DNA of 64,000 nucleotides, from positions 1 through 64,000 of the forward strand of contig CAVYCN010000003.1 of the NCBI GenBank assembly GCA_963767005.1, given 5' to 3'. The stretch's first letter is position 1, and each line of letters begins with the position of its first letter. Under the pieces are notes generated by a model. That model did not search any database. It had not been told where the DNA came from and saw only the letters and a list, made by a program, of their open reading frames with translations. A program made the translations under genes and the position numbers. The stretch comes from an uncultured Actinomycetes bacterium. GTDB taxonomy: Bacteria > Actinomycetota > Thermoleophilia > UBA2241. Positions 10,856 through 51,813 of the stretch are shown piece after piece.

Positions 10856-10913
10856 TCTTCTGGAGGCGGCGACCGGAGTCGAACCGGTGATTAAGGTTTG
10901 GCAGTCAGTCTCG
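10856..10913 (-). repeat. att-like direct repeat containing tRNA-Cys 3' half (anticodon loop to CCA)
   Basis: 58 bp, one mismatch vs 47958-48015; minus strand reads ctgccaaaccttaatcaccggttcgactccggtcgccgcctCCA with T-arm GGTTCGACTCC. Confidence 0.9.
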
Positions 10914-11096
10914 CGGTCCGGCGCAGGCCGGTATGTTGCAATTTACTTCAGAGAATCGAGTCTCGTCTTGTCCGCAGAATCGCTCCTGAGTAGCAGTTCT
11001 TGCTCCCGCGATCAGCCCGATCGGGGCGATTCCCTGAAGTAAAACGCCCCCTTTGTGCGCTGACTGGCGCCGTCGCGACCGCTTTGGCGGCGGTTC

Positions 11097-11128
11097 TGTC
11101 GGCACCGATGTCGGCACACCAGTCGGCA
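11097..11128 (+). repeat. Three TGTCGGCA-like repeats at 12-bp period (integrase arm-type site candidate)
   Basis: TGTCGGCA 11097, TGTCGGCA 11109, AGTCGGCA 11121; same motif at 47883/47895 and 9006. Confidence 0.6.
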
Positions 11129-11903: not shown

Positions 11904-12080
11904 ATGACCAACAGCACGACCATCACGGGCACGCCCATCGTCGGGCGGTCCATCCCTCGCGCGCGTGGGCGAGCGACAGTCAAGTCCGAGTCGGCGGCGA
12001 CCGTCGCGACGGTGCCCATCGGCACGGCCTGCTATCGCAAGGAGGTACCTCATGCCCAGAGCAACCAAGGCGCTACGTGA
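11904..12080 (+). CDS. Small hypothetical protein (58 aa)
   Basis: AGGAGG RBS, first ORF after the promoter; overlaps the next gene. Confidence 0.35.
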   Translation: MTNSTTITGTPIVGRSIPRARGRATVKSESAATVATVPIGTACYRKEVPHAQSNQGAT

Positions 12081-12496
12081 GCAGCGCATCGACGCCGTGG
12101 TCGACCTGCTCATCGCCTCAGGCCGCCGAGGCAACATCCTGAACTGGATCGCACAAACATGGCTGGGGCATCACCGAGCGCCAGGCCGACAACTACATCG
12201 CCCTGGCCACCGAACGTCTCGGCACGGTCGCCCACGCCGACAAGACCTTCGAGCTGGGCCGCACCATAGTCCGCCTGCAGTTGCTCTTCGGCAAGGCGCT
12301 GGCCGGCGGCGATCTGCAACTTGGCCTGCAATGCCTGCGTGCCCTGGCCCAGCTGCTCGGCCTAAACGCGGCCAGCGAGCTTGAGCTCTGCGGCCAGCTC
12401 GACCGGCGCGCCGACCGTGAGGAGCTTGCTCAGCGCCTGGCCGAGCTCCACGAGAGCGGGTTCTTCGAATCTGATGGAGGTAGTGATGAGTCGTGA
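12052..12496 (+). CDS. Putative terminase small subunit (frameshift near 12160)
   Basis: AAGGAGGT RBS; WGITERQADNYIA...ALAQLLGLNA homologous to 49832-50215; directly upstream of the large subunit. Confidence 0.6.
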
Positions 12497-13994
12497 CCAT
12501 CGGGCCCGGGCGCGAGCCGACGTCGCCCGCCTCTCCGACGTGCTAGTCTCCCGTCTTCTGCGGGGTGCCCGGGTACCCGACGAACGCAGCTTCATCGAGG
12601 CGACCTCGATCGACGACAAGCAGCACGGCGGTCTCGTGCCCTTCCGTCTTTGGGAGGGCCAGGCGGCGCTACTGCCGCTGCTCTCCTGCCCGCGAGTCTA
12701 CGTGCTCAAGGCCCGCCAGTTGGGGCTGACCCGGTTGAGTCTCGTGCACTGGTTGTACATGACCACGTCCTAGGGTAACCGCCTCATCTTGGTCACTCGT
12801 CAGAGTCGCACGGACGCCTTCGACGCCCTGCGGCGCATCAAGCTGCTGCCCGCCTCACTTGGCGCCGAGCACCCCGACTGGCAGCAACGCATCGTGAAGG
12901 ACAGCCAGACTGAGTCGGTCTTTGCCAATGGCAGCCGCTTCCGCGTGTTGTCGTCAACCAAGAGGATGGGCCGCGGCGAGGCGGCCTATGGGGCGACCCT
13001 CGACGAATTTGCATTTTGGGAGTGGCCGGCCGAGCAGTTCGCCGCCCTCGAGGCGGCCTGCGCTTACCTCCACTTGATCACCACGGGCGCCGGACCCGGC
13101 AACTACGCCGAGGCGCTCTGGCGGGCCGCCGACCTTGAGGGTAGCCCTTGGCGCAAGGTCTTCCTGCCCCGGTCTGCCGACCCGAGCCGCACGCAGGAGT
13201 GGTACGCCAAGACGGTGGAGGCAGCGGCCGAACCGCGCCTTGCCCGTCGTGAGTACGCCGCCTCCCCCGAGGAGGCCTTCGCCGCGCCCGAGGGCGTGTT
13301 CTTCGAGCGCTTCTCAAGCGAGGTCAATGTGGTCGAGATGAAGCCTCAGCACAACTGGTCGACCTGGCGCGCGGTGGACTTTGGCTACCACAGCCTCGCC
13401 TGTCTGTGGATCCAGGAGGCGCCCTCTGGCCAGGTCTGTGTCGTGGCCGAGATTGCCGGACGCAAGCGCTTTGACTGGACGACCGCGGAGTTCGCCGACG
13501 CCATCCTGGCAAAGGAGGCCACCCTGGGACTCGTCGAGGAGCCCCGGGCAACCCTCTGCGACCCGGCCGGCAATGGCGTGACCGCCCAGACCGGCGAGAG
13601 CGAGATCCTGATCTTTCAGGTCAAGGGCCTGGCGCCGGTCTTCGAGCGCTCTTCGGTGCGCGATGGCTGCATCCGCATCTCGGACGCTCTGGCCGAACCG
13701 AAGATCCCGCTGCTCGTCTCGCGGGACTGTCCCTGGCTGGCCGAGGCCCTCGGGGCGGTCGGACCGGACCGCCAACATCCCGACGTCTACGACGAGCACT
13801 CCGTCTACAGCCATGTGCTCGACGCAATGCGCTACTACTTCATCAGCCGGCTCCACATCGCCGAGGAGAACGAAGGCGGCTTCTACTGCGAGTGTCGCTC
13901 GCCGTTTCCGTGGGAGAACCTGGGGGACGGTGATGCGATGCTGCGGTACGGCCACCCGACGCCTCCCCAACAGGGCAGCGGGCCGATCTGGTAG
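12486..13994 (+). pseudogene. Terminase large subunit (KARQLG type) with in-frame TAG at 12771-12773
   Basis: LKARQLGLT Walker A, LDEFAF Walker B, AVDFGY, CDPAG, SHVLDAMRY nuclease motifs; both halves in the same frame. Confidence 0.85.
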
Positions 13995-14308: not shown

Positions 14309-14506
14309 CAAGGAAGCACAGATCCTGGTGGCCCACTGGCGCCGGCTCTACAACGGCCTGCGGCGCCACAGCGCGCGCGGTCGCCAACCGCCGGAGACGA
14401 TCGTCTGGTCGGGGTTCCCGCTCACAGACAACGCACCGCCGGTGCTCACCCCCGAGATGGACTTGGCACCATCATAGGAAGTGGACCACGCAATGGGGAC
14501 AGGTCA
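14305..14506 (+). mobile_element. IS3-family transposase C-terminal fragment and right inverted repeat
   Basis: LKEAQILVAHWRRLYNGLRRHSARG..PP integrase-core tail; terminus ...TGGGGACAGGTCA. Confidence 0.75.
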
Positions 14507-15625
14507 CTTCTGGACGGGCGCACCTTCGGCGTCGGCCTCGGCCGGGGCCGTCAGCCGTCCCGGACCCCTGGCATGCAGGAGTTCGCGCAAGGCGACCTGA
14601 GCAGCGCCGGCGAGCGGGATCGCAAGCAGCACGCCGACCACGCCGCCGAGCATGGCGCCGGCCAACGAGACGAGCAGGACGATGAGCGGCGACAAGACCA
14701 CGGTCCGGGCGTAGATCACGGGCGCCAGAAGGTGGTTCTCGGACTGTTGGTAGATCACGAAGTAGGCCACCAGGGCGACCGCCTGCGGCCAGCCGATCGA
14801 TAGCGCGACCAGGACGCAGAGCACGGCGCCGAGAGTCGCGCCGACCAGCGGGATGATATCGAGCAGGCCGACGGCCAGGGCGAGTGGCAGCGCGTAGGGC
14901 ACGCCCAGGATCGACATCGCCGCAAACGAGCCGACGCTGGCGAGCACGCTGATCAGCAGGTTGCCGGCCATGTAGCCGCTCACCGAGCGCTGCATGTGGC
15001 GCCCCACGGCGTCGACGCGCCCGCCACGCTCGCCCAGCGACGCCATCAACAGCCGCCAGGCGCGCGGCCCCTCGAGCAGCAGCATGAAGGTGATCGTTAC
15101 GACGCTCAGCACCGCGCCCAGGAGCGTGGCCGCCTGCGAGAACATCGAGGAGATCGTGCGCGGCCCTGCGATGAAGCGAAGCACACGCGCTGGCGTGACC
15201 GCGCCGATGCGGCGCTCGATGTCGAAACGCTGCTGCAGGAAGGCGAGCGGCCCGCCCGGCTTGAGAAGACTGTGGGCCAGATGCGGCAGGCCGCTCAAGA
15301 GTTGATCCGACTGGGTGGCGACAGGCACAGCCACCGCCACCACAATGGCGCCGACGACCGCGGCCGTGGCAAGTGTGATGAGGGTCGCGCCCAGCCAGCG
15401 CCGCACGTGGTGTCGCTCGAGCCAGGTCACGGCCGGTGCAACGGTCACGGCCAGCACGATCGCGATGAGTAGCCAGACGATGATTCGGCGCAGGTCCCAG
15501 ACCAGCAGGCCGAGGAGGGCGGCGCCGGCCACGACCGCCACGACGATCCCCGTCCGCAGAGCCAGCTCCGCGGGACTGACGACTCCTGCCCGTCTTGCTG
15601 AGGCGAGGTCCCTCGTCTCGGTCAT
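14504..15625 (-). CDS. AI-2E family transporter
   Basis: LDIIPLVGATLG, YQQSENHLLAPVI, GVLLAIP. Confidence 0.9.
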   Translation of the reverse strand: MTETRDLASARRAGVVSPAELALRTGIVVAVVAGAALLGLLVWDLRRIIVWLLIAIVLAVTVAPAVTWLERHHVRRWLGATLITLATAAVVGAIVVAVAVPVATQSDQLLSGLPHLAHSLLKPGGPLAFLQQRFDIERRIGAVTPARVLRFIAGPRTISSMFSQAATLLGAVLSVVTITFMLLLEGPRAWRLLMASLGERGGRVDAVGRHMQRSVSGYMAGNLLISVLASVGSFAAMSILGVPYALPLALAVGLLDIIPLVGATLGAVLCVLVALSIGWPQAVALVAYFVIYQQSENHLLAPVIYARTVVLSPLIVLLVSLAGAMLGGVVGVLLAIPLAGAAQVALRELLHARGPGRLTAPAEADAEGAPVQK

Positions 15626-15713
15626 GTGCCACTCACCCTCTCCACCGAGGCACGAGACCTACTCGGCCCGCACCTCTGCGCGACTAGCTGTCGATCGTCT
15701 TCGAGAGCTGTAA

Positions 15714-16388
15714 CTAGGCGGCCTTGTTCGGCCGTGTCTCGTTGACTTGCGCCTCGCCCTCGAAGCGCTTCTCGAGGCGTCTCATGGTGCGATGAAGATC
15801 GAGCAAGCGCAGACCGACACCGAATGAGAGCACACCCTGGATGATCAGGAAGGTGCCGACGAGCATGCCCAGCACCACGGCCGAGAAGGTCGGGTGGACG
15901 AGCACCAGGACGCCGAGGGCCGCAAGCGCGAGGCCCAAGACCAAAGCAGCGAGGCGCGGCTTGACCACGGAGTCCGTGACTGACCGGCAGACGTCGTAGA
16001 CGCCCCACGCGAGCAGGCTGATGCCCACGAAGATGGCCACGACGTAGAGGGTCGCGCCCGGCCAGGCCAGCGCGCAGGTGCCGAGCATGATCGAGGCGGT
16101 GCCGGCGACGATCGCAAGCCACGACCTCGGCCGACTCGTCGAGCCGATCGCGATCTCCGCCCCCCCGCTGCACAGCAGGAGCACACCGACCAGCGCGATC
16201 ATGGTCGAGACCGCGTTGATCTCAGAGGCCAGGGCAAATACGCCCAGAGCGATCACGACGAGGCCGAGTAGCACATGCGTCCACCAGGCGCCCGTTGCCC
16301 GCCTACCTACCCGGCGAGCAACGCCCATCGGTCCGAGCAATACGTAGTGCCTGCTGGCTGGTTCTCTGTCTGTCGACTGCGTTCCCAC
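15714..16388 (-). CDS. HdeD/DUF308 family membrane protein
   Basis: WW..VLLG start, six TM helices, LAWPGAT, repeated DUF308-like halves. Confidence 0.8.
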   Translation of the reverse strand: MGTQSTDREPASRHYVLLGPMGVARRVGRRATGAWWTHVLLGLVVIALGVFALASEINAVSTMIALVGVLLLCSGGAEIAIGSTSRPRSWLAIVAGTASIMLGTCALAWPGATLYVVAIFVGISLLAWGVYDVCRSVTDSVVKPRLAALVLGLALAALGVLVLVHPTFSAVVLGMLVGTFLIIQGVLSFGVGLRLLDLHRTMRRLEKRFEGEAQVNETRPNKAA

Positions 16389-16442
16389 GACCTTCCTCCT
16401 CTGGCTGTTGTGGCTTTGTGCGAGCTACTTATTGCGCACGAC

Positions 16443-16474
16443 AGGATGAGCAGGCATCCTCCCAATCGGATGAA
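16443..16474 (-). promoter_or_regulatory. 32-bp operator/promoter motif, copy 1
   Basis: Minus strand TTCATCCGATTGGGAGGATGCCTGCTCATCCT upstream of the hdeD-like gene. Confidence 0.75.
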
Positions 16475-16580
16475 CCAGGGGCGGTCGTGCCAATCGCTCC
16501 ATGCCTAGCGATGCAAGATGCTTCTCAGCGTCTACAATGGCGGCGAGAGAAGCCGCCCAGACAGCAGGGGGGAGGAGCTA

Positions 16581-19253
16581 GTGGGCAGCGGTCCGCCGGC
16601 TCGCGCTAATCGGTCAGGCAGCGGAAACAGATCTCCGACTGTTGCCCGCAGGGGACTGTTTGCGCGACTCTCGGCCAGCGGTCCTGCAGGAGTCATTTTA
16701 GTGTCGGCGCCGGCCGGCAGCGGCAAGACGGTTCTACTTCGCTCCTGGGTCGACGAGTCCGGCCTCGCCGACCGAGTCGCCTGGCTCACCGTCGAGCGAG
16801 ACCAGCGGGACCCGCAGCGGTTCTGGCTTGCGGTCGTCGACAGGCTACGCGCCACCACAGGCGCCGACGCGTTCGTCGAGAAGCTGACGCCTGCGCCCGA
16901 CTTCGACGGCCAGGCGCTCGTCGGACGCCTCCTCTCGGAACTCGGCTCGCTGGACGATCCAAGGGTGCTCATTCTCGACGATCTTCACGAGCTGAGATCC
17001 TCAGAGGCGCTCGCCCAGCTCGAACTCCTGCTGGCTCGCCGACCTGCGCAGCTTCACATCGTATTGGCCACCCGCCGCGACCCGCAGCTCGGCTTACACC
17101 GCCTGCGCCTCGCGGGCGAGCTGACCGAAGTGCGGGCCTCCGATCTGCGGTTCAGCCTCGATGAGACGCGCGAACTCCTCGTCGCCTCGGGAATCTCGCT
17201 CTCGGAGACGGCCGTCACCATGCTCCATGCGCGGACCGAGGGGTGGGTGGCCGGACTACGCCTCGCGGCGCTCTCGCTGCTCGGCAACTCCGACCCCGAG
17301 CGATTCGTCGCCGCATTCTCGGGCAGCGAGCGCAGCGTCGCCGACTACCTGCTCGCCGAGGTGCTCGAGCACCAGCCAGAAGATGTGCGGCGACTCCTGC
17401 TACGGACCTCGATCTTGGATCATGTGTGCGGTGCCCTCGGCGATGTCCTGACCGAAGCCACCGGATCGGAGCGCATCCTGCTTGAGCTCGAACAGGCGAA
17501 CGCGTTCGTCGTCGCCGTCGGCCCCGAGCGGACGTGGTTTCGCTACCACGCGCTCTTCGTCGACCTTTTGCGCCTCGAGTTGCGCCGCACCGAGCCGGGC
17601 GCTCTCGTGGGGCTGCACCGAGCCGCGGCGGCCTGGTTTGAGGAGCACGGGCGCGTGGTCGAAGCCATCCGTCACGCGCAGGCCGCCGAAGACTGGCCGA
17701 GAGCCGCTCGTATGGTCGCAGATCACAGCTTGACCCTCGCACTCGACGGTCAGGAGGCGACGGTGCATGCGTTGCTCGGGGCCTTTCCTGAGCGGGCACT
17801 CTCCGATGCGGAGCTGGCGCGAGCGTTTGCCTCTGATCAACTCACCTACGGGACGCTTGAGAGCGCGGACACGTACCTCTCCCTGGCAGCGAGACACGCA
17901 CTGGAGGTGGCTGACGATCGGCGGCACGGGTTCGAGGTCGCGCTCGGCATCACCCGGCTCTCCCTCGCCCGTCGACGGGGCGACTTCGGCTCTGTCCTCG
18001 ACGGGGTGGGGCCGCTGCTCGCCCCAGCGACTGCCGAAACGGCAGGCGAGATCGTGCTCGGCAACGACGCCAGGGCGTTCGCGCTGATGAACCTCGGCAT
18101 CATCGAGCTGTGGTCCTTCCGGGTCGCCGAGGCACAGGGGCATCTGAAGCAGGGTCTCGAGCTGGCCCGGCGGATCGCGCGCCCGTACATCGAGATCGGC
18201 TGTCTTGCTTACCTCGCCCTGGCTGCTGGCCAGCGCTCGTTCGTTCAGGGGCGAGCGCAATGCCGCGAGGCGATCGCGCTTGCCCAAACGCTTGGCTGGG
18301 AGGACGAGCCGATCACCTGCATCGCTCTGGCGACGATGGGTGCCGCTGCCGTGTCGGAGGCCCGCTTCGAAGAGGCCCGATACTGGCTCGAACGGGCCGA
18401 ACGCGGCCTGCGACCCGACCTCGACCCCGCCACAGCGCTTCTCATCTGCCTCGCGCAGGGCATGCAACATGTCGGCGAGGGCCGACTCGAGCAGGCGCTC
18501 GCAGCTTTTCGTTCCGCCGAGCAGTGTCAGACGAAGCTTGTTGCGCCGCAGGCCTTGATGGTCCTGACGCGCGAGTTCACCGTGCAGACTCTGTTGCGAG
18601 AGGGCGACTGCGCAGCGGCCCGGGCGACGTTGGCAGAGTTCTCGGATGATGGTGCCGAGTGGGGCGAGGTTCATGTTGCAACTGCCGCCCTGCATATCGC
18701 CGACGGGGACGCACAGGCAGCCGCCGATGTCCTCGCCCCCGTCCTTGCCAGGCGCACGCCGGTCCTTCTTGAGTTCACCGTCGTCAGCGCCGCCCTGCTC
18801 GATGCCGTCGCGCGCAACCTGCTCGGCGAGTCACAAGCTGCAGAAGCCGACATCGAACGCGCGCTCGACCTCGCTGAACCCGACGCGCACATCTTCCCGT
18901 TCGTGATGACGCCGGCCCGAGAGTTACTCGAACGCCACCCCCGGCACCGCACCGCCCACGCCGCGCTGCTGTCCGACATCCTGGACGTGCTCACCGGCTC
19001 GACGCTGCCCGTCCGAGCAGGTGAGCCTCCTGCGTTGTCCGAGGGCCTGAGCCGTAGTGAGCTCCGCGTGCTCCGCTACCTGCCGAGCAATCTGTCCGCC
19101 TCAGAGATCGCCTCTGAACTCTACCTGTCGACGAGCACAGTGAAGACGCACATGCTGCACATCTACACCAAGCTCGACGTGCATCGCCGCACCGAGGCCG
19201 TAGAGCGCGCCCGCGCGCTGGGTCTGCTTACGCCGCACGGCGCACACCGCTAG
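16581..19253 (+). CDS. MalT-like LuxR family transcriptional regulator (STAND ATPase, TPR, HTH)
   Basis: APAGSGKT, ILDDLH, RTEGWVAGLRL, WFRYHALF, ELYLSTSTVKTHMLHIYTKL; GGAGGAG RBS. Confidence 0.95.
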   Translation: MGSGPPARANRSGSGNRSPTVARRGLFARLSASGPAGVILVSAPAGSGKTVLLRSWVDESGLADRVAWLTVERDQRDPQRFWLAVVDRLRATTGADAFVEKLTPAPDFDGQALVGRLLSELGSLDDPRVLILDDLHELRSSEALAQLELLLARRPAQLHIVLATRRDPQLGLHRLRLAGELTEVRASDLRFSLDETRELLVASGISLSETAVTMLHARTEGWVAGLRLAALSLLGNSDPERFVAAFSGSERSVADYLLAEVLEHQPEDVRRLLLRTSILDHVCGALGDVLTEATGSERILLELEQANAFVVAVGPERTWFRYHALFVDLLRLELRRTEPGALVGLHRAAAAWFEEHGRVVEAIRHAQAAEDWPRAARMVADHSLTLALDGQEATVHALLGAFPERALSDAELARAFASDQLTYGTLESADTYLSLAARHALEVADDRRHGFEVALGITRLSLARRRGDFGSVLDGVGPLLAPATAETAGEIVLGNDARAFALMNLGIIELWSFRVAEAQGHLKQGLELARRIARPYIEIGCLAYLALAAGQRSFVQGRAQCREAIALAQTLGWEDEPITCIALATMGAAAVSEARFEEARYWLERAERGLRPDLDPATALLICLAQGMQHVGEGRLEQALAAFRSAEQCQTKLVAPQALMVLTREFTVQTLLREGDCAAARATLAEFSDDGAEWGEVHVATAALHIADGDAQAAADVLAPVLARRTPVLLEFTVVSAALLDAVARNLLGESQAAEADIERALDLAEPDAHIFPFVMTPARELLERHPRHRTAHAALLSDILDVLTGSTLPVRAGEPPALSEGLSRSELRVLRYLPSNLSASEIASELYLSTSTVKTHMLHIYTKLDVHRRTEAVERARALGLLTPHGAHR

Positions 19254-19262
19254 CAGCCGTCA

Positions 19263-19294
19263 TTCATACGATCCGGACGACGCCGGCTCATCCT
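19263..19294 (+). promoter_or_regulatory. 32-bp operator/promoter motif, copy 2
   Basis: TTCATACGATCCGGACGACGCCGGCTCATCCT, 21 bp before the ATG at 19316. Confidence 0.75.
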
Positions 19295-19315
19295 CTTGGG
19301 CGGCATGCTCGCGCC

Positions 19316-19780
19316 ATGGACCGATCAGCGCAACGAGGACAGGAGCTCGACAGGCGGGTTGAACTTGAGGGCCGCGTGCGGCGGGTGCTGGCCACCCAGG
19401 CAGCCGATGACGCTCGCTGCGACGAGAACCTCACTCCCGGTCAGCGCGCTGCAGCCCGCGTCGCTCAAGCAGGCGGCAGCTGGACTTTCGTCTTTGTGTT
19501 CCTCGGGGTGATTGCCCTCTGGATCTGCCTGAACACGGTCGGATGGTCACGCCACTGGGACGTCTACCCTTTCATTCTGCTGAATCTGGTGCTCTCCGTC
19601 CTGGCCGCCGTGCAGGCGCCGCTCATCATGATGAGCCAGAACAGAGACCAGGACCGTGACCGTCGGCACGCGGAGGCCGAGTTTCGTTCCAGCGTGCGAG
19701 CCGAGATCCTGCTCGAGCACCTTACGACCGAAATCGAAGACCTCAGGCGGCGCTTGGACGGTCCGTCCACGCACGCCTGA
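19316..19780 (+). CDS. DUF1003 domain membrane protein
   Basis: GGSWTFV, WDVYPFILLNLVLSVLAAVQAPLIMMSQNR. Confidence 0.92.
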   Translation: MDRSAQRGQELDRRVELEGRVRRVLATQAADDARCDENLTPGQRAAARVAQAGGSWTFVFVFLGVIALWICLNTVGWSRHWDVYPFILLNLVLSVLAAVQAPLIMMSQNRDQDRDRRHAEAEFRSSVRAEILLEHLTTEIEDLRRRLDGPSTHA

Positions 19781-19796
19781 GAGAGGGTAGCCCACA

Positions 19797-21272
19797 TTGA
19801 CAGTCGCGGCGGACGTGGTCCGGATACTCGGTCTTGGCATCCCTTGGTGGATCGCTGCGCCGCTGCTCGTCTACTGGCTGGTTGTCATCGTGCTGGTCAT
19901 TTCCGACGACCGCGAGCCTGCCAGCACACTGCTCTGGCTCGCCGCTCTCGTCTTCCTGCCCGGCGTCGGCGTCGTGCTCTTCCTGTTCTTCGGGCGCGAC
20001 TGGAAGGTGATCACGGCCCGCAGGCGCTGGGCTCAGTCCTATGTCGGAATGGTGCTCGCTGCGATGCGCCCGGTCTACGATCACAACCAGGCCGCCGACC
20101 GGCTGTTCCGGGAGCGCTACCCCCGCGGCCTCGCCACCGACATCGCCACCACGATCCAGCAGGAGAACGGCTCGCGCCCACTTCCCGCCGAGAGCGTCGA
20201 GGTCTTCGCCGACGGCGCCACATACTTCGCTCGTCTTGAGCAGGACCTGGCGAGCGCCCGCAGCTTCGTCCACCTCGACTTCTTCATCTGGGAGCACGAT
20301 GCACTCACGACGCGCATCACCGAGGTCCTGCTGGAGCGGCTGCGGGCCGGCGTCGAGGTGCGCATCGTCTACGACCTGCTGGGCAGCATGCGGTACAGCA
20401 AGGCGGAGCTCAGGCGGCTGAAGGCCGGCGGCGCCCGGGTCAGCGCCGACGTCTGGCAGCTCTTCAAGCTCAACTACCGCAACCACCTGAAGATCGCCGT
20501 GATCGACGGCACGATCGGCTTCACCGGCGGAGCCAACCTCGGCCAGGAGTACATCGACGGGGGCCGCAGGTTCCCCACCTGGCGTGACACCAACATCCGC
20601 ATCACGGGGCAAGCCGTGGCCGAGCTGCAGAAGCTCTTTGCCATGCGCTGGTTCGAAAACGAGCGCGAGGACGTCCTGCAGGAGCGCTATCTGCCGCTCG
20701 CCGTCGATGCGCGTCCGGAACGCTGCGTGCCCACCCAGCTCGTCGCCCACACGATCGAGCTACCCTGGGAGGCCGCGCGCCGCGCCCACATGATCGCCAT
20801 CTCGCGGGCCGAACGGACGCTGCGCATCCAGTCGCCCTACTTCGTGCCCGACCGCGCCACCTACGATGCCATGATCAACGCCGCGCTGAGCGGCGTCGAC
20901 CTCAAGCTCATGATGACCGGCTGGGTCGACCAGCACCTGCCCTTCTGGGCGGCGCAGACCTACTACGAGCCGCTGCTGCGTGCCGGCGGGCACATCTACC
21001 AGTACACCGCCGGCTTCTTCCACGCCAAGACAATCGCCGTCGACTCGAGCATCTGCGCCGTTGGCACCATGAACCTCGACAACCGGAGCCTGCGGCTCCA
21101 CAAGGAGCTCATGGAGTGGATCTACGACGCCGCGCTCACCAGGCGGCTCGAGGAGATCTTCGACGCCGACCTTGAGCAGTGTCGCGAGGTGACCCTCGAT
21201 GACGTTCGCTCGGTCGGTCCGCTGAAGCACTTCCGCAACTCCTGCGCGCGGCTGTTCTCGGCCGAGATCTGA
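19797..21272 (+). CDS. cls: Cardiolipin synthase
   Basis: Two N-terminal TM helices (PLDc_N); HKD motifs RNHLKIAVID and FHAKTIAVD. Confidence 0.92.
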   Translation: MTVAADVVRILGLGIPWWIAAPLLVYWLVVIVLVISDDREPASTLLWLAALVFLPGVGVVLFLFFGRDWKVITARRRWAQSYVGMVLAAMRPVYDHNQAADRLFRERYPRGLATDIATTIQQENGSRPLPAESVEVFADGATYFARLEQDLASARSFVHLDFFIWEHDALTTRITEVLLERLRAGVEVRIVYDLLGSMRYSKAELRRLKAGGARVSADVWQLFKLNYRNHLKIAVIDGTIGFTGGANLGQEYIDGGRRFPTWRDTNIRITGQAVAELQKLFAMRWFENEREDVLQERYLPLAVDARPERCVPTQLVAHTIELPWEAARRAHMIAISRAERTLRIQSPYFVPDRATYDAMINAALSGVDLKLMMTGWVDQHLPFWAAQTYYEPLLRAGGHIYQYTAGFFHAKTIAVDSSICAVGTMNLDNRSLRLHKELMEWIYDAALTRRLEEIFDADLEQCREVTLDDVRSVGPLKHFRNSCARLFSAEI

Positions 21273-21382
21273 CGGCGCAGATTCTGCCGCAACGCCAAGC
21301 CATGCCGTCGATCGACGATCTGGGTCTAACCCGGTCCGAAACGGGGGCAGTCCGACCCGGGCACACTCGCCGGCAGCCATCG

Positions 21383-21414
21383 TTCATACCATCCGGTCGA
21401 TGCCGGCTCATCCT
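21383..21414 (+). promoter_or_regulatory. 32-bp operator/promoter motif, copy 3
   Basis: TTCATACCATCCGGTCGATGCCGGCTCATCCT, 21 bp before the ATG at 21436. Confidence 0.75.
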
Positions 21415-21435
21415 TTTCGGGGCGATGCTGGCGTC

Positions 21436-21681: not shown

Positions 21682-21783
21682 CGGCGGCTCAGCGCCCGAG
21701 GCGCACGGCTTCGGGCTTACCCAGATAACCGGCACCGATGCGGTCGCCAAGAGACTTCGGTGCGAACCACAGGAGGCACAACG

Positions 21784-24337: not shown

Positions 24338-24359
24338 GTCGGAGCGAATCTCCGCCCGT

Positions 24360-42190: not shown

Positions 42191-42550
42191 GCGCCGTCCC
42201 AGATGATCCGCAGTGGCGGTTTCTCACTAGCCCAATAGGGCTTACTGCTCGTCTATGAATAGCACTTTCTGTTGCCCCAGGACAATGCGAGACGTGCCCT
42301 CGCCGGGCCCAGCGTGAGGTAGATGATGGCGGTGAGTCGATTGAAGGACCTGCGACCCCATCTCGTGAGCCGTGAAGGGCGAAACACGGGCGTGGATAGA
42401 TGGCCAGCTTCATCGACTCACAGGGCACCGGTCAGCAGACATGTGCGGCGTCTAATGCTCCTGCGCAGGGCGCTGGCGCCGACGTGGCGCCGCCGGCCCG
42501 CTTGGCGCACGTGCGATGAACCAAGCAACCCCAACCCTGTGACCCACGGC

Positions 42551-43906
42551 TCAGCCTGCGAGCTGCTGCTCGGTCACTCGGGCCTTCGCCCTGAGCAGCG
42601 GGTACAGACAGGCGCCGGCCAGGCCGCAGACGATCAGCAGGCCGTAGCTTGTATGGGCTCCGAGGCGATCGAGCAGCAGGCCGCCGAGCAGCGGCCCGAG
42701 GGCGCCCTGACCGGCGATGTAGATCAATGTCCAGCTGCCCATGTAGCGTCCCCGCAGCTCAAGCGGTGCCATCTGGGCGACGATGGCCGAGGTCAGCGGG
42801 CCAAAGAGCGCCTGGGCAACGGAGAGCGCGACGACCGGCGCCAGCAGGACCGCGCCGACCGGCACGAAGGCCACCAGACCGACGCCGAGTCCGAAGAGTG
42901 TGCTGGCCAGAGCCACCGCGAGCATCGGGTCAAGCCGCTTGGCGGCACGCACGGCGGGATACTGGCTGACCACGATGACCGCCGAGCTGAAGGAGAGCAG
43001 CAGGCCCCAGCTTGAGGGCCGCAGGTGCAGGACGGTGGTGAGCAGCAACGGGAAGCTCGAGTACAGCTGGCCAAAGACAAAGAGCGGCAGCAGCGAGATG
43101 CCACAGAAGGCCAGGAAACGCCTATCACGCAGGACGTGCCCGTAACCAGTTGCCCGGCGGGCGCCGCGGCGGCCTGTCCGGCGCCGCGGCAGAAGGCTTA
43201 AGGCGAGGCTGCCGAAGACCTCGAGGGCCTCCCCCGCCGAGGCCGCCCGCCGTCGTCTGACCGGCTTGCTCTCCTTGAGCACGGCCAGGGTGAAGCCCAG
43301 GTAGATGAGGCAACCCAGGCCAGCTGCCACGAACAGCTCGGGCAGGGTAACGCCGGACGCCAGCAGCAGCGCCGCGACCAGGGGGCCGACGATCTCGCCG
43401 GCGCCGATCATGAGGCGCACGAGGCTGTAGCCGTCGGGCCGCAGGCGGGGACGCACGAGGTCGGCGACCATCGCGTTGCTGGCCGTGAGAAACAACGGCC
43501 AGCCCAGGGCGCGGTCGCAGAACAGCAGGGCGCAGAGCAGCCAGAAACCGTGGGCGAAGGCCAGGCCGCTGTACATCAGCGTCTCCATGGCGGCGCAGGT
43601 GATCATCACGGCGCGGCGCCCGAAGCGGTCGCAGAGGCTGCCGGCCAGGGGCTGCAGGGGCAGACCGCCCAGGGCGGTCAGGCCCATGATGGCCCCCACC
43701 ACGGCGACCGAGACGCCGAGCCTGCCCTTCAGCAGGATCGCGGTGTAGGGGAAGGCCAGGCCGATGAAGGTGAGGTAGAAGAGCGTGCCGCCGACCAGCA
43801 GCCAGAACTGGCCGGGAAAGAGGCGCAGCTGACGGCGCAGGCGCTTGACCTGCCTTATGTCTGTGAGATGCAGCGCAGCCGCCTCTTCCTCCGAGCCTGG
43901 TGCCAT
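42551..43906 (-). CDS. MFS transporter
   Basis: GSLCDRFGRR motif A, APLELRGRYMG, two bundles of TM helices. Confidence 0.92.
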   Translation of the reverse strand: MAPGSEEEAAALHLTDIRQVKRLRRQLRLFPGQFWLLVGGTLFYLTFIGLAFPYTAILLKGRLGVSVAVVGAIMGLTALGGLPLQPLAGSLCDRFGRRAVMITCAAMETLMYSGLAFAHGFWLLCALLFCDRALGWPLFLTASNAMVADLVRPRLRPDGYSLVRLMIGAGEIVGPLVAALLLASGVTLPELFVAAGLGCLIYLGFTLAVLKESKPVRRRRAASAGEALEVFGSLALSLLPRRRTGRRGARRATGYGHVLRDRRFLAFCGISLLPLFVFGQLYSSFPLLLTTVLHLRPSSWGLLLSFSSAVIVVSQYPAVRAAKRLDPMLAVALASTLFGLGVGLVAFVPVGAVLLAPVVALSVAQALFGPLTSAIVAQMAPLELRGRYMGSWTLIYIAGQGALGPLLGGLLLDRLGAHTSYGLLIVCGLAGACLYPLLRAKARVTEQQLAG

Positions 43907-44334: not shown

Positions 44335-45619
44335 ATGCGCGGTCACATCCGCAGGCGAGGCAAGGCCAGCTTCGAGTACATCGTCGATGTGGGCACAGCC
44401 CCGGCCCAGCGCTGCGCGAGTTGCAACAAGCGCTACTGGCTTGAGCGCCGGCCAAAGGACAACTGCCCGGCCTGCGGCGGCAAGCTGCGGGAGACCGAGG
44501 AGCGCCGGCGCGCCATCAAGGCCGGCTTTCACACACGCAAGGAGGCCCAGGCGGCGATGGCCAAGGTGATGGTCGCAGTCGAGGAGCGCAGTTACGTCGC
44601 GCCGAGCAGGCTGACGGTGCGCGAGTACCTCACCAAGGAGTGGCTGCCGGCAATCCGCGCGACAGTGAGACCGACGACCTACCGCTCCTACGAACAGCAC
44701 GTCAGCTTCCACATCGTGCCGCACATCGGCTCGCTGAAGCTGGAGAGGGTGACGGGCGCCGCCTTGAACGCGCTCTATGCCAAGCTCGCAGAGTCGGGCA
44801 AGTGTGACGGTGTGCGCGGCCTCTCGCCGCGCACGGTGCACCATGTCCATGTCTGCCTGCACCGCGCCTTTCGTGACGCCGTGCGCTGGGGTCGCCTTCC
44901 TCGTAACCCGGTCGATGCCGCCGACCCGCCCAAGGTGGCCGGCCCTGGATCTCGCGAGATGAAGACCTGGAGCGCCGCGCAGGTGCAGAGCCTTCCTTGA
45001 GGCCACCAAGGACGACCGCCTCCACCCGCTCTGGCGCTTGCTCTGCCTGACCGGCATGCGCCGCGGCGAGGCCCTCGGGGTGAAGTGGGACGATGTCGAT
45101 CTTGCGGCCGGCTGTCTTTGCGTACGGCGTTCACTCATCCCGCTGGGCGGTGAGGTGATCGTCTCTGAGCCCAAGACGGCGCGCGGGCGCCGTTCGATCG
45201 CCCTCGATCAAGAGACCATCGAGGTGCTCAAGGCGCAGGCGGCAAGGCAACTTGGCGAACAGGCGGGCGAGGGCCAGGCCTGGATCGACTCAGGCTACCT
45301 CTGCACCAAGGAGGACGGCAGCGCCTACCACCCCGAGGTCGTGAGCCGCTACTTCCGAGCCGCGGTCAAGGCCGCCGGGCTGCCTGCGATCAGCCCGCAT
45401 GTGCTAAGGCACACCCACGCCACCCTGGCGCTGCGCGCCGGTATCCACCCCAAGGTCATCTCGGAGCGTCTCGGACATGCGAACATCGCGATCACGCTGG
45501 ACACCTACTCGCACGCCATCCCGGCGATGCAGGAGGAAGCGGCAGTGAAGATCGCCGAGCTGATCTCAGGCGAGAGAGCTGAGCCGGCTGACGAAACGGC
45601 GACCACCTCCGCGGCCTGA
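44335..45619 (+). CDS. Tyrosine recombinase/integrase (frameshift near 44990)
   Basis: MRGHIRRRG arm domain, SAM-like domain, TGMRRGE, EPKT, HVLRH, LGHA, TYSH. Confidence 0.93.
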
Positions 45620-46134: not shown

Positions 46135-46656
46135 GAGTGACCCGTTGACGCGGTGAACGACGAGGAACACGCCCTGTCGATGGCCGGTTCGCTGCCAGCC
46201 AGCAGGCCCGGGGGCAGCCCCCGCGCGATGTGCAGGAGACTGTCGCCTGAAAGGATGCGACGCAGGCGAAACGGGCCAATCTGCCCGTGATGCCCCCACA
46301 CACGACCTTCGGCAGCCACGCGACGCAGGCCCTGCACGCCGATACCCGCCCAAGATCGTCGGAGCGCTCGGACATCCCTCTGAGGCGACGTGCGAACCCA
46401 CTCGCTGTCCCGGCGCCGCGACCGTCAGGAACCGTCACCGGTTGTCATTTTGAGCCGCACAGTTCCGCCACCCTCGCCACTTTCCTCCGCTAATCGACCG
46501 CTTCCCGCCACTGGCCCCTATCGCATTCGTAGAGCCTGACCGTGAAATCGAGCGCAGAATTCGCAGAGGCGGGTCGCGGGTGACCTAAGGTCTAGCGCGC
46601 GCTCTGCGCTCAGCTCTTCGGCCCGAGCGCGAGCACGCACACGCGAGCACGCAGGT

Positions 46657-47135
46657 TGTCAAGGTTCACCACCTCTGTTCCACTTTGGCTCCAGCACCTC
46701 TGTTCCACCCGTAGCGTCGCAGTCTTCTTCTTGCGGTGAGCGCGTCCGTTCGGCGTTGAGAAGGCGCCGCGCTCCTTGCTCGGGTCGTGCCGCGCGGGCT
46801 GTGTGCGCAGAAGCACGTCTGCCTGCCAGATCTCGACCGTGTCGCCCTCAAGGCGCACCTCAACCTGCTTGCGGCGGTGAGTGGTCCCGACCCAGTAGTC
46901 GGTGCCGGCGAAGCTCACGTGGCCACGCGCCTGGACCAGGCGCCGCACCGAGGAGCCGGCCCCCAAGGTGAGGCGTGGACGCGCCTGGGGCAGCCGTTCG
47001 CGGGCGCGGCTCGTCCGGGCCGGGTGACGGCGGGCGAAGCTGGCGACGAGCACGCCACGGCAGCTGACCTGCACGAGTCCGCTCGCGCTGAACTCGACGG
47101 AGCGGCGCCGTGGTCACGCGTCGAGGGCGACTGAC
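46657..47135 (-). mobile_element. IS481-like transposase C-terminal remnant with terminal repeat array
   Basis: GHVSFAGTDYWVG...VEVRL...RHDPSKERGAFSTPNGR; end TGT at 46657; CACCTCTGTTCCAC at 46670 and 46695. Confidence 0.75.
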
Positions 47136-47882: not shown

Positions 47883-47902
47883 TGTCGGCGCGAATGTCGG
47901 CA
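47883..47902 (+). repeat. Two TGTCGGC repeats at 12-bp period (arm-type site candidate)
   Basis: TGTCGGCG 47883, TGTCGGCA 47895; matches 11097-11128. Confidence 0.6.
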
Positions 47903-47957: not shown

Positions 47958-48015
47958 TCTTCTGGAGGCGGCGACCGGAGTCGAACCGGTGATTAAGGTT
48001 TTGCAGTCAGTCTCG
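47958..48015 (-). repeat. att-like direct repeat containing tRNA-Cys(GCA) 3' half
   Basis: Minus strand ctGCAaaaccttaatcaccggttcgactccggtcgccgcctCCA; no D-arm or 5' acceptor strand. Confidence 0.9.
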
Positions 48016-48516: not shown

Positions 48517-49839
48517 ATGACCCCGCCCGCCGACACCAACCCCTGCCCGACCCCACCGACCGAGGCACAACCACCGAGACGCCGCCGGCCCGCCAAACCC
48601 GCCCCCGACGGCCTGCGACTGGACCCCGCCAACGCCAACCGCGGCACCGAGCGCGGCCGCGAGCTCGTCAAGGCCTCGCTTGCCGAGTGCGGCGCCGGTC
48701 GCTCGATCGTGGTCGACAGAAGCGGCACCACAATCGGCGGTGCCAAGACCCTCGAGGCGGCCCGTGCCCTGGGTCTGCCCGTCAAGATCGTCGAGAGCAC
48801 AGGCGATGAGCTGATCGCCATCCAGCGCACCGACTTAGACCTCGGCGCAGACGAGCGTGCCCGCAGACTGGCCTACCTCGACAACCGCGCCTCCGAACTC
48901 GGTCTGGAGTGGGACCGCGAGCAGCTTCTGCGCGACCTGAGCGCCGGCCTCGATCTTGCCGGCATCTTCACGCCGCTTGAGCTTGACGACCTGCTCGGCT
49001 CCCGGCCGCTCCTGGCCGACCCCGACGAGCTGCCCGAGATGCCCGAGCAGGTCGACGTAGGACGCGGCGACATCTATCGCTGCGGCGCCTCGCGCGTGAT
49101 GTGCGGCGATGCCACGAAGCCGGACGAGGTCGCCCACCTGCTGGACGGCGCCCGACCGCGCCTGCTCATCACCGACCCGCCCTACGGCGTCGGGCTCGAC
49201 ATGGAGTGGCGCGACCGCGCCGGCCTCAACCAGCTCGGGGCGGCGGAGAAGAGCTACATGAAGAAAAGGCGCGGCGGGCGTTCGATCTCAAACGACACGA
49301 TCGCCGACTGGTCGGCCGCCTTCGAGCTCGTGCCAAGCCTGCAGGTCGCCTACGTCTGGCACGCCACCGTCCACATGCGCGCGGTGGCAGACGGCCTGGA
49401 GCGCATCGGCTTTGCGCTGCGTCAGCAAATCATTTGGGTGAAGCCCTATGCGGTGATCAGCCGCTCCGCCTACAACTGGCGCCACGAACCCTGCTGGTAT
49501 GCGGTCAAGAAGGGCTCAACGGCACACTGGACCGGCGGCCGTAAGCAGGACACGGTCTGGGAGTGCGCCTCGCCCAAGCAGCTCATGGCCGCTGGCTCGG
49601 AGGAGCCACTGCCCCATCCGGCCCAGAAGCCCTGCGAATGCATGGCCCGCCCCGTACGCAACCACTCAGGCGATGTCTATGACCCCTTCCTCGGTTCCGG
49701 CACCACCTTGATCGCCGCAACTCAGGAGGGCCGCGCCTGTTACGGCATGGAGCTTGAGCCGCGCTACGTCGCCCTGGCCGTGCGCCGCTGGGAGCTCTAC
49801 AGCGGCAAGACGGCGCTGCGCGAGGCCCACCATGGCTAA
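48517..49839 (+). CDS. Phage-type DNA N6/N4 methyltransferase with ParB-like N-terminus
   Basis: DPANAN..GAGRSIVVD..DNR; TDPPY; HPAQKP; YDPFLGSGTT. Confidence 0.92.
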   Translation: MTPPADTNPCPTPPTEAQPPRRRRPAKPAPDGLRLDPANANRGTERGRELVKASLAECGAGRSIVVDRSGTTIGGAKTLEAARALGLPVKIVESTGDELIAIQRTDLDLGADERARRLAYLDNRASELGLEWDREQLLRDLSAGLDLAGIFTPLELDDLLGSRPLLADPDELPEMPEQVDVGRGDIYRCGASRVMCGDATKPDEVAHLLDGARPRLLITDPPYGVGLDMEWRDRAGLNQLGAAEKSYMKKRRGGRSISNDTIADWSAAFELVPSLQVAYVWHATVHMRAVADGLERIGFALRQQIIWVKPYAVISRSAYNWRHEPCWYAVKKGSTAHWTGGRKQDTVWECASPKQLMAAGSEEPLPHPAQKPCECMARPVRNHSGDVYDPFLGSGTTLIAATQEGRACYGMELEPRYVALAVRRWELYSGKTALREAHHG

Positions 49840-50215
49840 GGCAGGTAAGGCCGAGGTCGAACGCCGAGTCGATGAGCTCTACGAACTGGTCGTCAACCGC
49901 ATCAGCTACCGCCAGATCGTCACCTACTGCGAGGGCAAGTGGGGCATCGGTGAGCGCCAGGTCTCGGTCTATATCGCAAAGGTGCGGGCCCGCATGGCCG
50001 AGCGGGCCGCCGAGAACCAGACAACCGAGCTCGCCCGCGCCCTGGCAGGCTACGAGGCGATCTTCGCCCGTCAGATGGCGGCCGCTCACTACGCAGGGGC
50101 GCGCGAGACCCTGGACTCGATCGTGCGCCTGCGCGGCCTGGCGGCCCCCGAACAGCGCAGCTTCGAGGGTGTCATGAACGTCATCCAGCTGCCCCCGGGC
50201 AGCGAGCTACCATGA
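49832..50215 (+). CDS. Putative terminase small subunit
   Basis: HTH-like YRQIV...WGIGERQVSVYIA, RLRGLAAP; overlaps both the MTase stop and the TerL start (ATGA). Confidence 0.65.
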   Translation: MAKAGKAEVERRVDELYELVVNRISYRQIVTYCEGKWGIGERQVSVYIAKVRARMAERAAENQTTELARALAGYEAIFARQMAAAHYAGARETLDSIVRLRGLAAPEQRSFEGVMNVIQLPPGSELP

Positions 50216-51813
50216 GCGCCGACGTCCTGGCCGGCACGCCCTACCGTCCGCTGGGCGGGGCACTTGCGCTCTTCTTGGCCCGCGAGGGTGAGCTCCTGCT
50301 GGCCGGGCCCTCGGGCACCGGCAAAAGCCGCGCCTGTTTGGAGAAGCTCCACTACCAGGCCCTCGAGCATCCCGGCTTTCGTGCCCTGGTGGTGCGCAAG
50401 ACGCGCGAGAGCCTGACCCACGCCGGCCAGCTCACCTACGAACGGGCGGTGCTGGCCCGCACGCCCGGGGCGGCCCGCCGCTACGCCCGCGGCGATGAGT
50501 ATCGCTATACAAACGGCTCGCTTGTTGTGATCGGCGGCATGGATCGCGTCTCGAAGATCATGAGCTCCGAGTACGATGCGATCTACGTGCAGGAGGCAAC
50601 CGAACTCTCACTGGATGAGTGGGAGCACCTCACCACACGGCTGCGCGGTGCGGCGCTCGGCTCCTGCCAGATTCTCGCCTGCGCCAACCCGGCCGGCCCC
50701 AACCACTGGCTCAAGCAGCGCGCCGAGGTCGGGAGGCTGCGTCTGATCGAGAGCCGCCACGAGGACAACCCGCTGCTCTGCGACCCCGATACGGGCACCT
50801 ACAGCGCCTTCGGAGCACGCTACCTGGCCAAGCTCGACGCCCTCACCGGGGTGCGCTACCAACGTCTGCGTAAGGGCCTCTGGGTGGCCGCCGAGGGCAT
50901 GGTCTACGACGAGTTCGAGGCCGCCCTTCATCTGCGCGACGCGCGCGAGCTATTCGGGACGGCGCGTCGTCCGCCGGCGTCCTGGCGGCGCTTCTGGGCG
51001 ATCGACTTCGGCTATACCCATCCGTTGTGCTGGCAGGCCTGGGCTCAAGACCCCGCCTCGGGCACCCTTGTGCGCTACGCCGAGCTCTACCACAGCCATC
51101 TGCTGGTCGAGCAGGCGGCCGCCAAGATCCTTGCCTGGATGCAGAAGACCGGCGAGGACTTTCCCGCGGCGATCGTCTGCGACCACGACGCCGAGGGCCG
51201 GGCGACGCTGCAAGCCAAGCTCGGCGTGCCGACCGTCTCGGCGCGCAAGAGCGTCGCTGTGGGCATCCAGGCGGTCAAGCAGCGCCTGGCGCGCGGCAAG
51301 GGCGAGGGCGGGCTTGTGCTACTGCGTAACTGCGGCATCGCCGCCGACCGCGAGCTGGCCGAGGCCAAGCAGCCGACCTGCACCGAGGAAGAGGTCGAGC
51401 TCTACGTCTGGCGCGAGGGCATCAAGGACTCAGAGCCCTTGAAGGAGCATGACCACGGCCTCGATGCTCTGCGCTACCTGATCATGCACGTCGACCGCGC
51501 CAGTGTTTGGAGTCCTGAGGATATCGCCGCCCTGGGACGGCGCTGGCGCGGTGAGCAGGTCGGCGGCGGCGAGACCGACCTGGAACGCGAGCGCCGTCTG
51601 CGCCGCGAACGGGCCGAGGAGGCCGCCCGCCCGCAAGCCGAACCCAGCAAAGCGCGATCCGAAGAACCGGAGCCCACCCCCGAGCAGCTGACCGAGGAAT
51701 GCCGCGGCCAGTATCTAGCCGAGGTCGAGGAGATCAACCGTCAGGCGCTGCTGCGGGCGCAACGTGGCGCGGGACGGCCGCAGCGGGGGCTGAACGGACC
51801 GGGTCGACGCTGA
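50212..51813 (+). CDS. Terminase large subunit (PBSX-like)
   Basis: GPSGTGKS, YVQEATE, ANP..NHWL, GLWVAAEG, IDFGYTHP, DHGLDALRY; extra charged C-terminal tail. Confidence 0.92.
   Translation: MSADVLAGTPYRPLGGALALFLAREGELLLAGPSGTGKSRACLEKLHYQALEHPGFRALVVRKTRESLTHAGQLTYERAVLARTPGAARRYARGDEYRYTNGSLVVIGGMDRVSKIMSSEYDAIYVQEATELSLDEWEHLTTRLRGAALGSCQILACANPAGPNHWLKQRAEVGRLRLIESRHEDNPLLCDPDTGTYSAFGARYLAKLDALTGVRYQRLRKGLWVAAEGMVYDEFEAALHLRDARELFGTARRPPASWRRFWAIDFGYTHPLCWQAWAQDPASGTLVRYAELYHSHLLVEQAAAKILAWMQKTGEDFPAAIVCDHDAEGRATLQAKLGVPTVSARKSVAVGIQAVKQRLARGKGEGGLVLLRNCGIAADRELAEAKQPTCTEEEVELYVWREGIKDSEPLKEHDHGLDALRYLIMHVDRASVWSPEDIAALGRRWRGEQVGGGETDLERERRLRRERAEEAARPQAEPSKARSEEPEPTPEQLTEECRGQYLAEVEEINRQALLRAQRGAGRPQRGLNGPGRR

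Follow-up and report, generated by a model that had tools for sequence, protein, structure and literature searches.

Tandem tRNA-Cys islands with a portal-less TerS-TerL module in an uncultured actinobacterium

We analysed the first 64 kb of contig CAVYCN010000003.1 (C3), a stretch of 64,000 nt referred to here as the window, from the genome of an uncultured actinobacterium of the class Thermoleophilia (G000; 3.44 Mb in 19 contigs, scored at 100% completeness and 4.87% contamination). The window holds part of a tandem array of integrative islands, each of which begins beside its attachment (att) site with a short module encoding the small (TerS) and large (TerL) terminase subunits and continues into cargo without a portal gene. 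These are real elements, integrative phage satellites or islands of unusual make-up. We favour, at a probability of roughly 55%, the reading that they are non-replicating satellites of phage-genome size that supply their own TerS-TerL motor and borrow the heads of a helper phage of about 39 kb. Established are the tandem, site-specific insertion at the 3' end of tRNA-Cys and tRNA-Phe genes, the position of the module at attR, pointing inward, the tyrosine integrase of an island/satellite clade at the other end, and the repeated replacement of the TerL occupying the slot.

Three tandem islands and their terminase modules

The initial annotation, made from the window alone, had described full tRNA-Cys att repeats. 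ARAGORN and Rfam found no tRNA gene in the 64-kb window, and the repeats are instead the 44-nt 3' half of tRNA-Cys, the full gene of which lies at C3:125958-126031. The architecture had also been reported as occurring twice; its recurrence holds, but there are three islands, the third att copy at C3:85194 being followed by a module of its own (regulator, DNA methyltransferase (MTase), TerS and TerL; C3:85591-90168). The att copies bound islands C (37,102 bp), B (37,231 bp, up to C3:85194) and A (40,764 bp), and all three modules share one direction along the array, toward the tRNA. A chance layout is excluded because the att cores are 43-44/44 identical to the tRNA, a control with the reversed pattern scored 0 in 89 genomes, and other genomes repeat the layout. 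Furthermore, an 8-nt direct repeat pair is placed at -80/-68 for all three right-hand att copies (the 48006 region, C3:85194 and the tRNA), and pairs or single copies occur 149-248 nt to the right of all three island starts. Judged by this placement, the repeats likely behave as expected of integrase arm sites.

The cassettes lie where they had first been placed, module 1 (island C) at 11129-13994 and module 2 (island B) at 48517-51813. Island C carries a regulator on the minus strand followed by terS and terL, pointing inward; island B carries a ParB-MTase, terS and terL; island A combines the minus-strand regulator with ParB-MTase, terS and terL. The tyrosine integrase, which faces att from the far end, is open in island A (411 aa), frameshifted in C and missing from B. 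We conclude that island B has an open module and lost its integrase, and that island A, outside the window, is the complete one.

The two TerS-like proteins of the window are homologous (29% identity over 80 aa, E 3e-9) and the two TerLs belong to different families, being alignable only along a stretch of the nuclease half (25% over 215 aa, E 8e-5), both as first annotated. TerS matched no named family significantly, and a fold search against the PDB gave no match at E<=0.001 and one unnamed viral match. The predicted fold is a helix-turn-helix (HTH) plus hairpin (pLDDT 82), and homologues precede TerL in portal-bearing phages. The TerS assignment is made because of the protein's size, its place before terL in those phages, the predicted fold and the viral look-alikes.

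Neither TerL of the window is followed by a portal, capsid or tail gene, and transporters and metabolic genes come next, in agreement with the initial annotation. Among 200 open reading frames (ORFs) scanned over C3:1-128000 (101 of the 164 gap ORFs were included in a follow-up family scan), we found no portal, capsid, tail, primase, replicase, relaxase or type IV secretion family; relaxase and type IV secretion Pfam families, a feature of integrative conjugative and mobilizable elements, were absent from the island ORFs as well. The cargo over this range consists of transporters, arginine-deiminase-pathway genes and corrinoid/methylamine methyltransferase genes. Island A encodes a UvrD helicase that is by family not a replication initiator. 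Head-tail adaptor/connector families matched none of the island ORFs, and no genome-wide search was aimed at them. Across the whole genome, PF04860, PF05133 and PF05065 detected no portal or capsid, and no portal, capsid or tail was recovered when 23 phage proteins of relatives (20 structural, three TerL) served as tblastn queries; the sole structural match lay in an unrelated gene on contig C19 and covered a C-terminal domain of 54-75 aa. The family phrog_113 had no match in G000 and none in control genomes either (1/89 family genomes matched). No AlpA/Stl-type regulator family was found beside the integrases, though short ORFs may be missed; a DUF6214-like protein lies across att. Altogether, G000 has five TerL loci, namely the three islands, a locus at C2:681105-684203 with the island layout at a tRNA-Phe att, and one on C16 belonging to a different small element.

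Recurrence, turnover and size of the module-bearing islands

Searches of related genomes with the three TerL types gave matches in 9/61, 11/89 and 7/89 genomes. A TerS profile run on 89 family genomes returned 31 matches in 17 of them, all of which we inspected: 13 have a TerL without portal, six a TerL with portal, eight no TerL, and four are remnants or a duplicate. Ten of the 13 portal-less modules show the window geometry at tRNA-Cys or tRNA-Phe in four genomes (G000, G003, G011 and G019), two others point toward att, and one, near a contig end, has no visible att. The idea that the window represents a family of cargo islands with TerS-TerL rather than two accidents is thus borne out by ten copies. 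It had been proposed to tabulate whether homologues sit at tRNA-Cys att sites without a portal; these ten do so, at tRNA-Cys or tRNA-Phe. All six of the prophages with a portal carry a TerL type absent from the portal-less set. A metagenome scan added one close relative (93% to the module 1 orthologue L043, on a contig ending inside terL); the TerS alignment was too divergent for a scan of viral contigs.

Several of the eight TerS-without-TerL loci have an island-type integrase and one (L325) a primase, because of which they look like ordinary phage-inducible chromosomal islands (PICIs); one of the eight has only about 1.1 kb of downstream sequence. Candidate classical PICIs with MTase and TerS, or TerS alone, are L315, L316, L320, L321, L323, L324 and L325.

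The islands differ from related phages in layout and integrase. The phages are arranged attP>int>MTase>TerS>TerL>portal, whereas in the islands the integrase faces the tRNA and the module sits at the opposite end (attR), pointing inward. Island integrases (12 rows) group with PICI-like elements (SH-aLRT 87) and are split from seven phage rows (SH-aLRT 99), so that the islands have neither the phage layout nor a phage-clade integrase. The MTase tree is poorly resolved, with phage and island rows not cleanly apart. Moreover, a portal fragment follows none of the 13 portal-less modules, whereas L053, a true eroded prophage of phage-type layout, keeps 329 aligned portal residues.

Closest homologues in complete prophages, together with decay, had been named beforehand as the outcome speaking against a satellite family. 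Portal-less islands supply the closest relatives of the window TerLs, at 80% (L043) and 60% (L021), and portal-bearing phages follow at 51-57% at best; decay is seen in module 1. The portal-less slot has held at least six TerL lineages, which fall in three places of the tree of the TerL1 type (that of module 1) and in types 2, 3 and 4 (types 2 and 3 being those of islands B and A). Monophyly of the four island TerL1-type proteins is rejected (AU test, p=0.002). Each island TerS clade mixes TerL types, and no phage TerS is nested within them in a quick tree of 20 rows. A TerS consists of a DNA-binding N-terminal part and a TerL-binding C-terminal part. The TerS of L063 is a chimera, its N-part 52/102 identical to that of module 2 and its C-part 39/62 to that of island A, with a TerL3-type gene following, and it fits this division. 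Similarly, TerL2 and TerL3 have cores only 26% identical and share a C-terminal tail of about 100 aa (48% over 93 aa), also present in a portal-bearing phage TerL. In lambda, TerL tails of such kind dock on proheads. None of 2214 candidates was a further protein with this tail at E<=0.001, and a complex prediction of the tail with its own phage's portal (L107) scored 0.00, which weighs neither way. A TerL chimera is also found in a portal-bearing prophage, L048 (G068:C2:3169-4455), with an ATPase half 69-70% identical to the island A TerL and a nuclease half 45-49% identical to the TerL1 type.

Substitution patterns were compared between portal-less TerLs. The dN/dS between the window TerL1 and its portal-less orthologue L043 is 0.22 (0.17-0.28) at dS 0.68; values for TerL3 against L062 (0.39) and TerL2 against L021 (0.44) are overestimates because synonymous sites are near saturation. 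Over 290 codons, the L043 branch has two nonsynonymous and 24 synonymous unique changes. Judged from these codons, this portal-less lineage is under purifying selection. The dN/dS check suggested in the initial annotation thus gave a split answer, with strong purifying selection on the L043 branch and decay on that of the window TerL1. The selection most simply postdates portal loss, because island C and L043 share att, regulator and the absence of a portal.

Capsids limit the size of the elements that ride in them (PMC8494744). Module-bearing att-to-att intervals measure 37.1, 37.2, 40.8, 35.5 and 20.1 kb, the last with a split TerL, and two more run off their contigs at at least 34.6 and 39.8 kb. 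The 21 module-free intervals span 1.5-49.1 kb, with none in 35-41 kb and two in 33-44 kb; the range 35.5-40.8 kb thus contains four of five module-bearing and 0/21 module-free intervals. G014:C6 was excluded from the list, its second match lying within the cysS locus. A complete prophage from the same host family, with an MTase 57% identical to that of island A, measures 39.2 kb, and the longest related viral contigs reach 34-42 kb.

Packaging model and competing explanations

On the satellite reading, infection by a helper would lead to expression of the module; TerS would bind a pac site near terS, and TerL would cut, dock on the helper portal and pack one headful per island. Without a replicon, packaging must start from either an excised circle or the array in its integrated state, and the array itself would more likely serve as the concatemer. 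A headful of 40-43 kb started at module C could run through the cargo, the integrase and a hybrid att with both arms, ending just past module B. Speculatively, recombination between the two modules might then close a circle and create chimeric MTase/TerS/TerL combinations, while new TerLs would be taken from phages to match the portals available. In situ packaging from integrated PICIs, tandem copies included, is documented (PMC12829572). Apart from the arm repeats and pairwise similarity, the modules have no shared upstream motif, and no pac site or promoter could be named.

Several observations weigh against this reading. Neither packaged island DNA nor an excised circle, pac site or helper was observed, the read-level data being low-depth contigs of DNA runs and an attP junction spanning more than 20 kb; G000 yielded no helper prophage. 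High-frequency transfer is also hard to explain, as no replication gene was found. The size difference (Fisher p 0.0003 or 0.005 depending on the range) was tested post hoc, three of its four matches come from one genome, kin are non-independent, and p is 0.06 when collapsed by genome. The selection argument assumes that the common ancestor of island C and L043 was already portal-less. TerL1-type phage-like loci have a portal in 16/17 distinct loci at 55-59% identity (17 of 24 phage-type loci, after removal of duplicates, entered the tree), and portals were found among the ORFs behind TerL2- and TerL3-type viral genes in 24/33 cases (33 of 36 such ORFs were tested). Sampling of phages from this host group is sparse, so that a complete one with the island layout may exist. 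Of the 13 portal-less modules, seven are open and six split or shortened, in some cases perhaps through errors of assembly. In a large sister genus, module-free tandem tRNA-Cys att arrays of the island integrase clade are common, and most of the tRNA-Cys islands lack the module; together with the TerS-only loci, they indicate a dispensable module that could be eroding from the far end. We conclude that the module is a recurring but dispensable part of a wider island family.

Decay of module 1 counts in the same direction. Island C has a frameshift in terS, an in-frame TAG in terL and a frameshift in its integrase, breaks that the initial annotation had not stated. Of 196 columns invariant across three outgroups, 12 carry derived residues in the window TerL1 and three in L043 (p=0.035), and the respective tree branches measure 0.22 and 0.046; module 1 also lacks an MTase at the place where L043 has one. 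Module 1 is a pseudogene even if any one break were an assembly error, and island C is a dead copy.

Two other explanations of the breaks were rejected. Read-through of the terL1 TAG as pyrrolysine was considered in view of the CUA tRNA of G000 and its MtmB, which is split at the customary position, but TAG ends 826/2489 high-scoring genes, terS is frameshifted, and protein changes are in excess. Assembly error as the sole cause was set against a split-gene background, counted on genes with paralogues, of 27/1131 outside the array and 2/57 inside, many splits being explained by pyrrolysine codons or two-gene ABC pairs. Short-read contigs of at least 99% identity cover parts of module 1, and one bridges the terL end into non-portal sequence (13688-14036). 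They leave the terS break uncovered, and the TAG is spanned by a single contig, which differs at one position that is not listed. Relatives, perhaps of other strains, lack the additional base seen in the integrase gene.

A rival explanation sees the modules as eroding phage remnants. In it, tRNA cargo islands picked up or inherited a phage's MTase-TerS-TerL end and have been losing it stepwise (MTase-TerS-TerL, then MTase-TerS, then nothing), the module persisting only through its adjacency to the att arm. The module 1 pseudogene, the split or shortened copies and further TerL fragments in six genomes (G004, G005, G008, G011, G019 and G092) fit such a history, as does the integrase clade common to module-free and TerS-only islands; portal-bearing phages include relatives of every TerL type, and there too MTase-TerS-TerL is close to int and att. 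Against it, 0/13 modules retain a portal fragment, and erosion fails to account for the layout and integrase clade, the 2 to 24 changes on the L043 branch, TerL swaps that retain the cognate TerS C-terminus and the shared TerL tail, or a phage-genome size despite non-phage content. Terminases are normally lost from decaying prophages, incomplete ones preferentially losing terminase and portal (PMC7744054), whereas the islands keep the terminase as their sole morphogenesis function. Defective prophages resemble the islands in having phage genes beside att and an integrase, with broken copies (PMC7744054), and differ in that the island integrase lies outside the clade of the donor phages. We consider erosion an unlikely explanation of the modules as a whole.

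The repeated replacement of TerL would also fit an arms race, in which the island terminase reduces the burst by occupying phage proheads or cutting DNA, transfer being incidental and by another route. Such anti-phage interference needs no replicon, satellite TerS proteins have been described as interference factors (PMC9618062), and defence-type genes lie at the other island ends (GmrSD with RiboL-PSP-HEPN in B, a UvrD pair in A). On the other hand, it leaves the 35.5-40.8 kb sizes and the fixed inward position by att unexplained, and the cargo is mostly metabolic. As a main function we regard interference as quite improbable, although it is compatible with self-packaging.

The common orientation of the modules toward the tRNA raises the further scenario of lateral transduction, a headful series running in situ through the array into the chromosome and moving host and island genes for homologous recombination, in the manner of a gene transfer agent. 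PICI terminases drive lateral transduction from the integrated state (PMC12829572), and seven array genes are 99-100% identical to chromosomal genes, in tracts ending at ORF limits. Yet att arms in every island and an integrase in two of three suit transfer as a unit, and near-identical pairs exist outside the array as well. This scenario appears to us the remotest of those considered here.

Returning to the satellite reading, the islands can be set beside described elements. With PICIs, including the Staphylococcus aureus pathogenicity islands (PMC10085698, PMC12829572), they have in common an integrase, a chromosomal att, a TerS-like gene, the lack of head and tail genes and a predicted helper dependence, the integrase being in the states given above. 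They differ by their own TerL (PICIs have TerS without TerL), by having no primase or replicase that we could find, and by an att-distal, inward-pointing module; relatives of PICI type in the same host family are TerS-only, primase-bearing and of the same integrase clade (L325). PICIs measure about 11 kb (PMC8494744) and the islands 35-41 kb, mostly metabolic cargo. Capsid-forming PICIs likewise encode TerS and TerL, but they also encode portal, capsid and head-tail proteins and steal tails (PMC10085698); portal, major capsid and head-tail connector were not found in the islands.

Tycheposons resemble the islands in their tRNA-targeting tyrosine integrase, tandem arrangement and metabolic cargo, and have integrases common to cargo and satellite types (bioRxiv 10.1101/2020.12.28.424599); the islands studied here likewise carry cargo in a tandem array, at a tRNA with partial tRNA repeats, and use a tyrosine integrase. 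In that source, PICI-like tycheposons have terS or a capsid gene and were not observed with cargo, whereas the islands carry terS and terL with at least 30 kb of cargo. Tycheposons measure about 10-20 kb, many with replication modules, and on these descriptions the islands are set apart from them. [quoted passage not shown] Their monomers of less than 17 kb are packaged as concatemers with a TerL presumed to be the helper's, whereas each island has one phage length and its own TerL. EPIPs are 11 kb and have TerS and a tape measure (PMC12822802), and a terminase of its own is not evident from the description of the AH14b satellite. The satellites in the papers cited here either borrow the helper TerL (PICIs, VEIMEs, PICI-like tycheposons) or encode TerL together with portal and capsid (capsid-forming PICIs). 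The literature covered, outside supplements and most subscription papers, contained no element with TerS and TerL, without portal and without replicon. To these systems the islands add a phage-length size, no replicon, a tandem array and TerL turnover.

If true, an element of full phage length with a motor alone and no replication would occupy a vacant place in the satellite scheme. Large tRNA islands with an integrase and no conjugation genes would also gain a means of transfer, a long-standing question for islands of tycheposon type. With methylamine methyltransferases, arginine-deiminase-pathway genes and transporters, the cargo matters ecologically for an uncultured actinobacterial lineage of anaerobic type. 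Annotation would be affected too, because a terL gene found alone is commonly taken as a marker of prophages or viruses; L171, for example, is filed as a viral contig and yet resembles one of the portal-less modules. More tentatively, and with doubts that outweigh our confidence, the islands could be a new class of phage parasite: non-replicating, phage-sized, with their own motor, a TerL swapped per helper portal, the array as concatemer, about 30 kb of metabolic genes and a rebuilt att per headful, and modules reshuffled at each transfer.

Features of the window and accompanying observations

Features in the window. Positions count from its first nucleotide.
Feature	Position	Strand	Remarks
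Degenerate, shortened tRNA-Cys att copy	9190..9218	-	Older insertion; no terminase module after it
att core, attR (outer end) of island C	10861..10904	-	1 mismatch to tRNA-Cys 3' 44 nt
8-nt direct repeat pair	11097..11116	+	Likely integrase arm-type sites; motif also beside other att copies
Putative DNA-binding regulator, 225 aa	11129..11806	-	DUF6214-like lead (16% of one Atlas cluster)
TerS-like gene, module 1	12052..12496	+	Frameshifted near 12150-12163
TerL, module 1; pseudogene	12486..13994	+	KARQLG Walker A type; in-frame TAG at 12771-12773
Island C cargo	14504..43906		AI-2E transporter, MalT-like regulator, cardiolipin-synthase-like PLD, split FtsH, aquaporin, ornithine carbamoyltransferase (OTCase); sigma-70, PAS/HD protein, FG-GAP protein, Fe-S hydrogenase-like protein, major facilitator superfamily (MFS) protein
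Tyrosine integrase of island C	44335..45619	+	Frameshifted near 44987-45000; faces att; island/satellite clade
Transposase remnant	46613..47074	-	Mu-transposase C domain
8-nt direct repeat pair	47883..47902	+	-80/-68 from att core; likely arm-type sites
att core, island C / island B junction	47963..48006	-	44/44 to tRNA-Cys 3' end
ParB-like/N6-N4 DNA methyltransferase, module 2	48517..49839	+	Open
TerS-like protein, 127 aa, module 2	49832..50215	+	Open; predicted HTH and helical hairpin
TerL, module 2	50212..51813	+	PF04466 Terminase_3; open
Island B cargo (start)	52142..64000		GntR, peptide ABC transporter, S9 peptidase, OsmC, aminotransferase, MFS

The regulator of module 1 is 70% identical to its orthologue in an island of G011, and a homologue lies directly upstream of the island-clade integrase in L053; no relatives were found on viral contigs. 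In the cargo of island C, no phage structural, replication or conjugation family was found. Past the window, the cargo of island B continues with corrinoid/methylamine methyltransferases, carbamate kinase, OTCase and a GmrSD-HEPN pair. Its MtmB methyltransferase is encoded in two ORFs split at the expected pyrrolysine position (C3:80347-81765), and a CUA-anticodon tRNA lies at C3:242986-243058, a tRNA at which the related elements L045 and L175 insert. The defence-like pairs comprise a GmrSD N-terminal domain with RiboL-PSP-HEPN at the end of island B (C3:83300-84537), and a UvrD helicase with a 370-aa ORF without family at the integrase end of island A (C3:121611-124799).

To the left of the degenerate att, window positions 1-10700 also resemble island cargo, in an element that runs past the contig end. 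They hold paralogues of island A genes (molybdopterin oxidoreductase 77%, cyclase 83%, at the DNA level) as well as a copy of OTCase with a frameshift. The seven array or island tracts shared with chromosomal genes on other contigs (99.4-100% identity) lie at window 4167-5096 and 8033-8892 and at C3:69668-70837, 78280-79223, 96911-98725, 99261-100657 and 101007-101998. They encode OTCase (twice), a deiminase-like protein, carbamate kinase, a two-gene pair, glutamate dehydrogenase and GAPDH. In those checked, identity stops at the ORF limits or within a few bases, and near-identical gene pairs occur outside the array too; from their sequences, the tracts look like gene conversion or very recent capture.

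Further afield, G083:C6:369883-524270 has seven tandem tRNA-Cys att copies over 154 kb, with many integrase fragments and one broken MTase/TerS remnant, which makes it an extreme hotspot of insertion. We also observed a second satellite-like group of about 13 kb, comprising L044 (G011:C1), L047 (G032:C7), L045 (G007:C8) and L019 (G000:C16:1-5500). Its members, with L045 masked in part and L019 truncated at a contig end, gave no portal or capsid match. They contain an island-clade integrase, a primase/helicase, a TerL1-type terminase, a tape-measure protein and a scaffold-like ORF, the latter matching the C-terminus of a phage prohead protease at 38% over 81 aa. The dN/dS of their TerL is 0.23 (L044 against L045).

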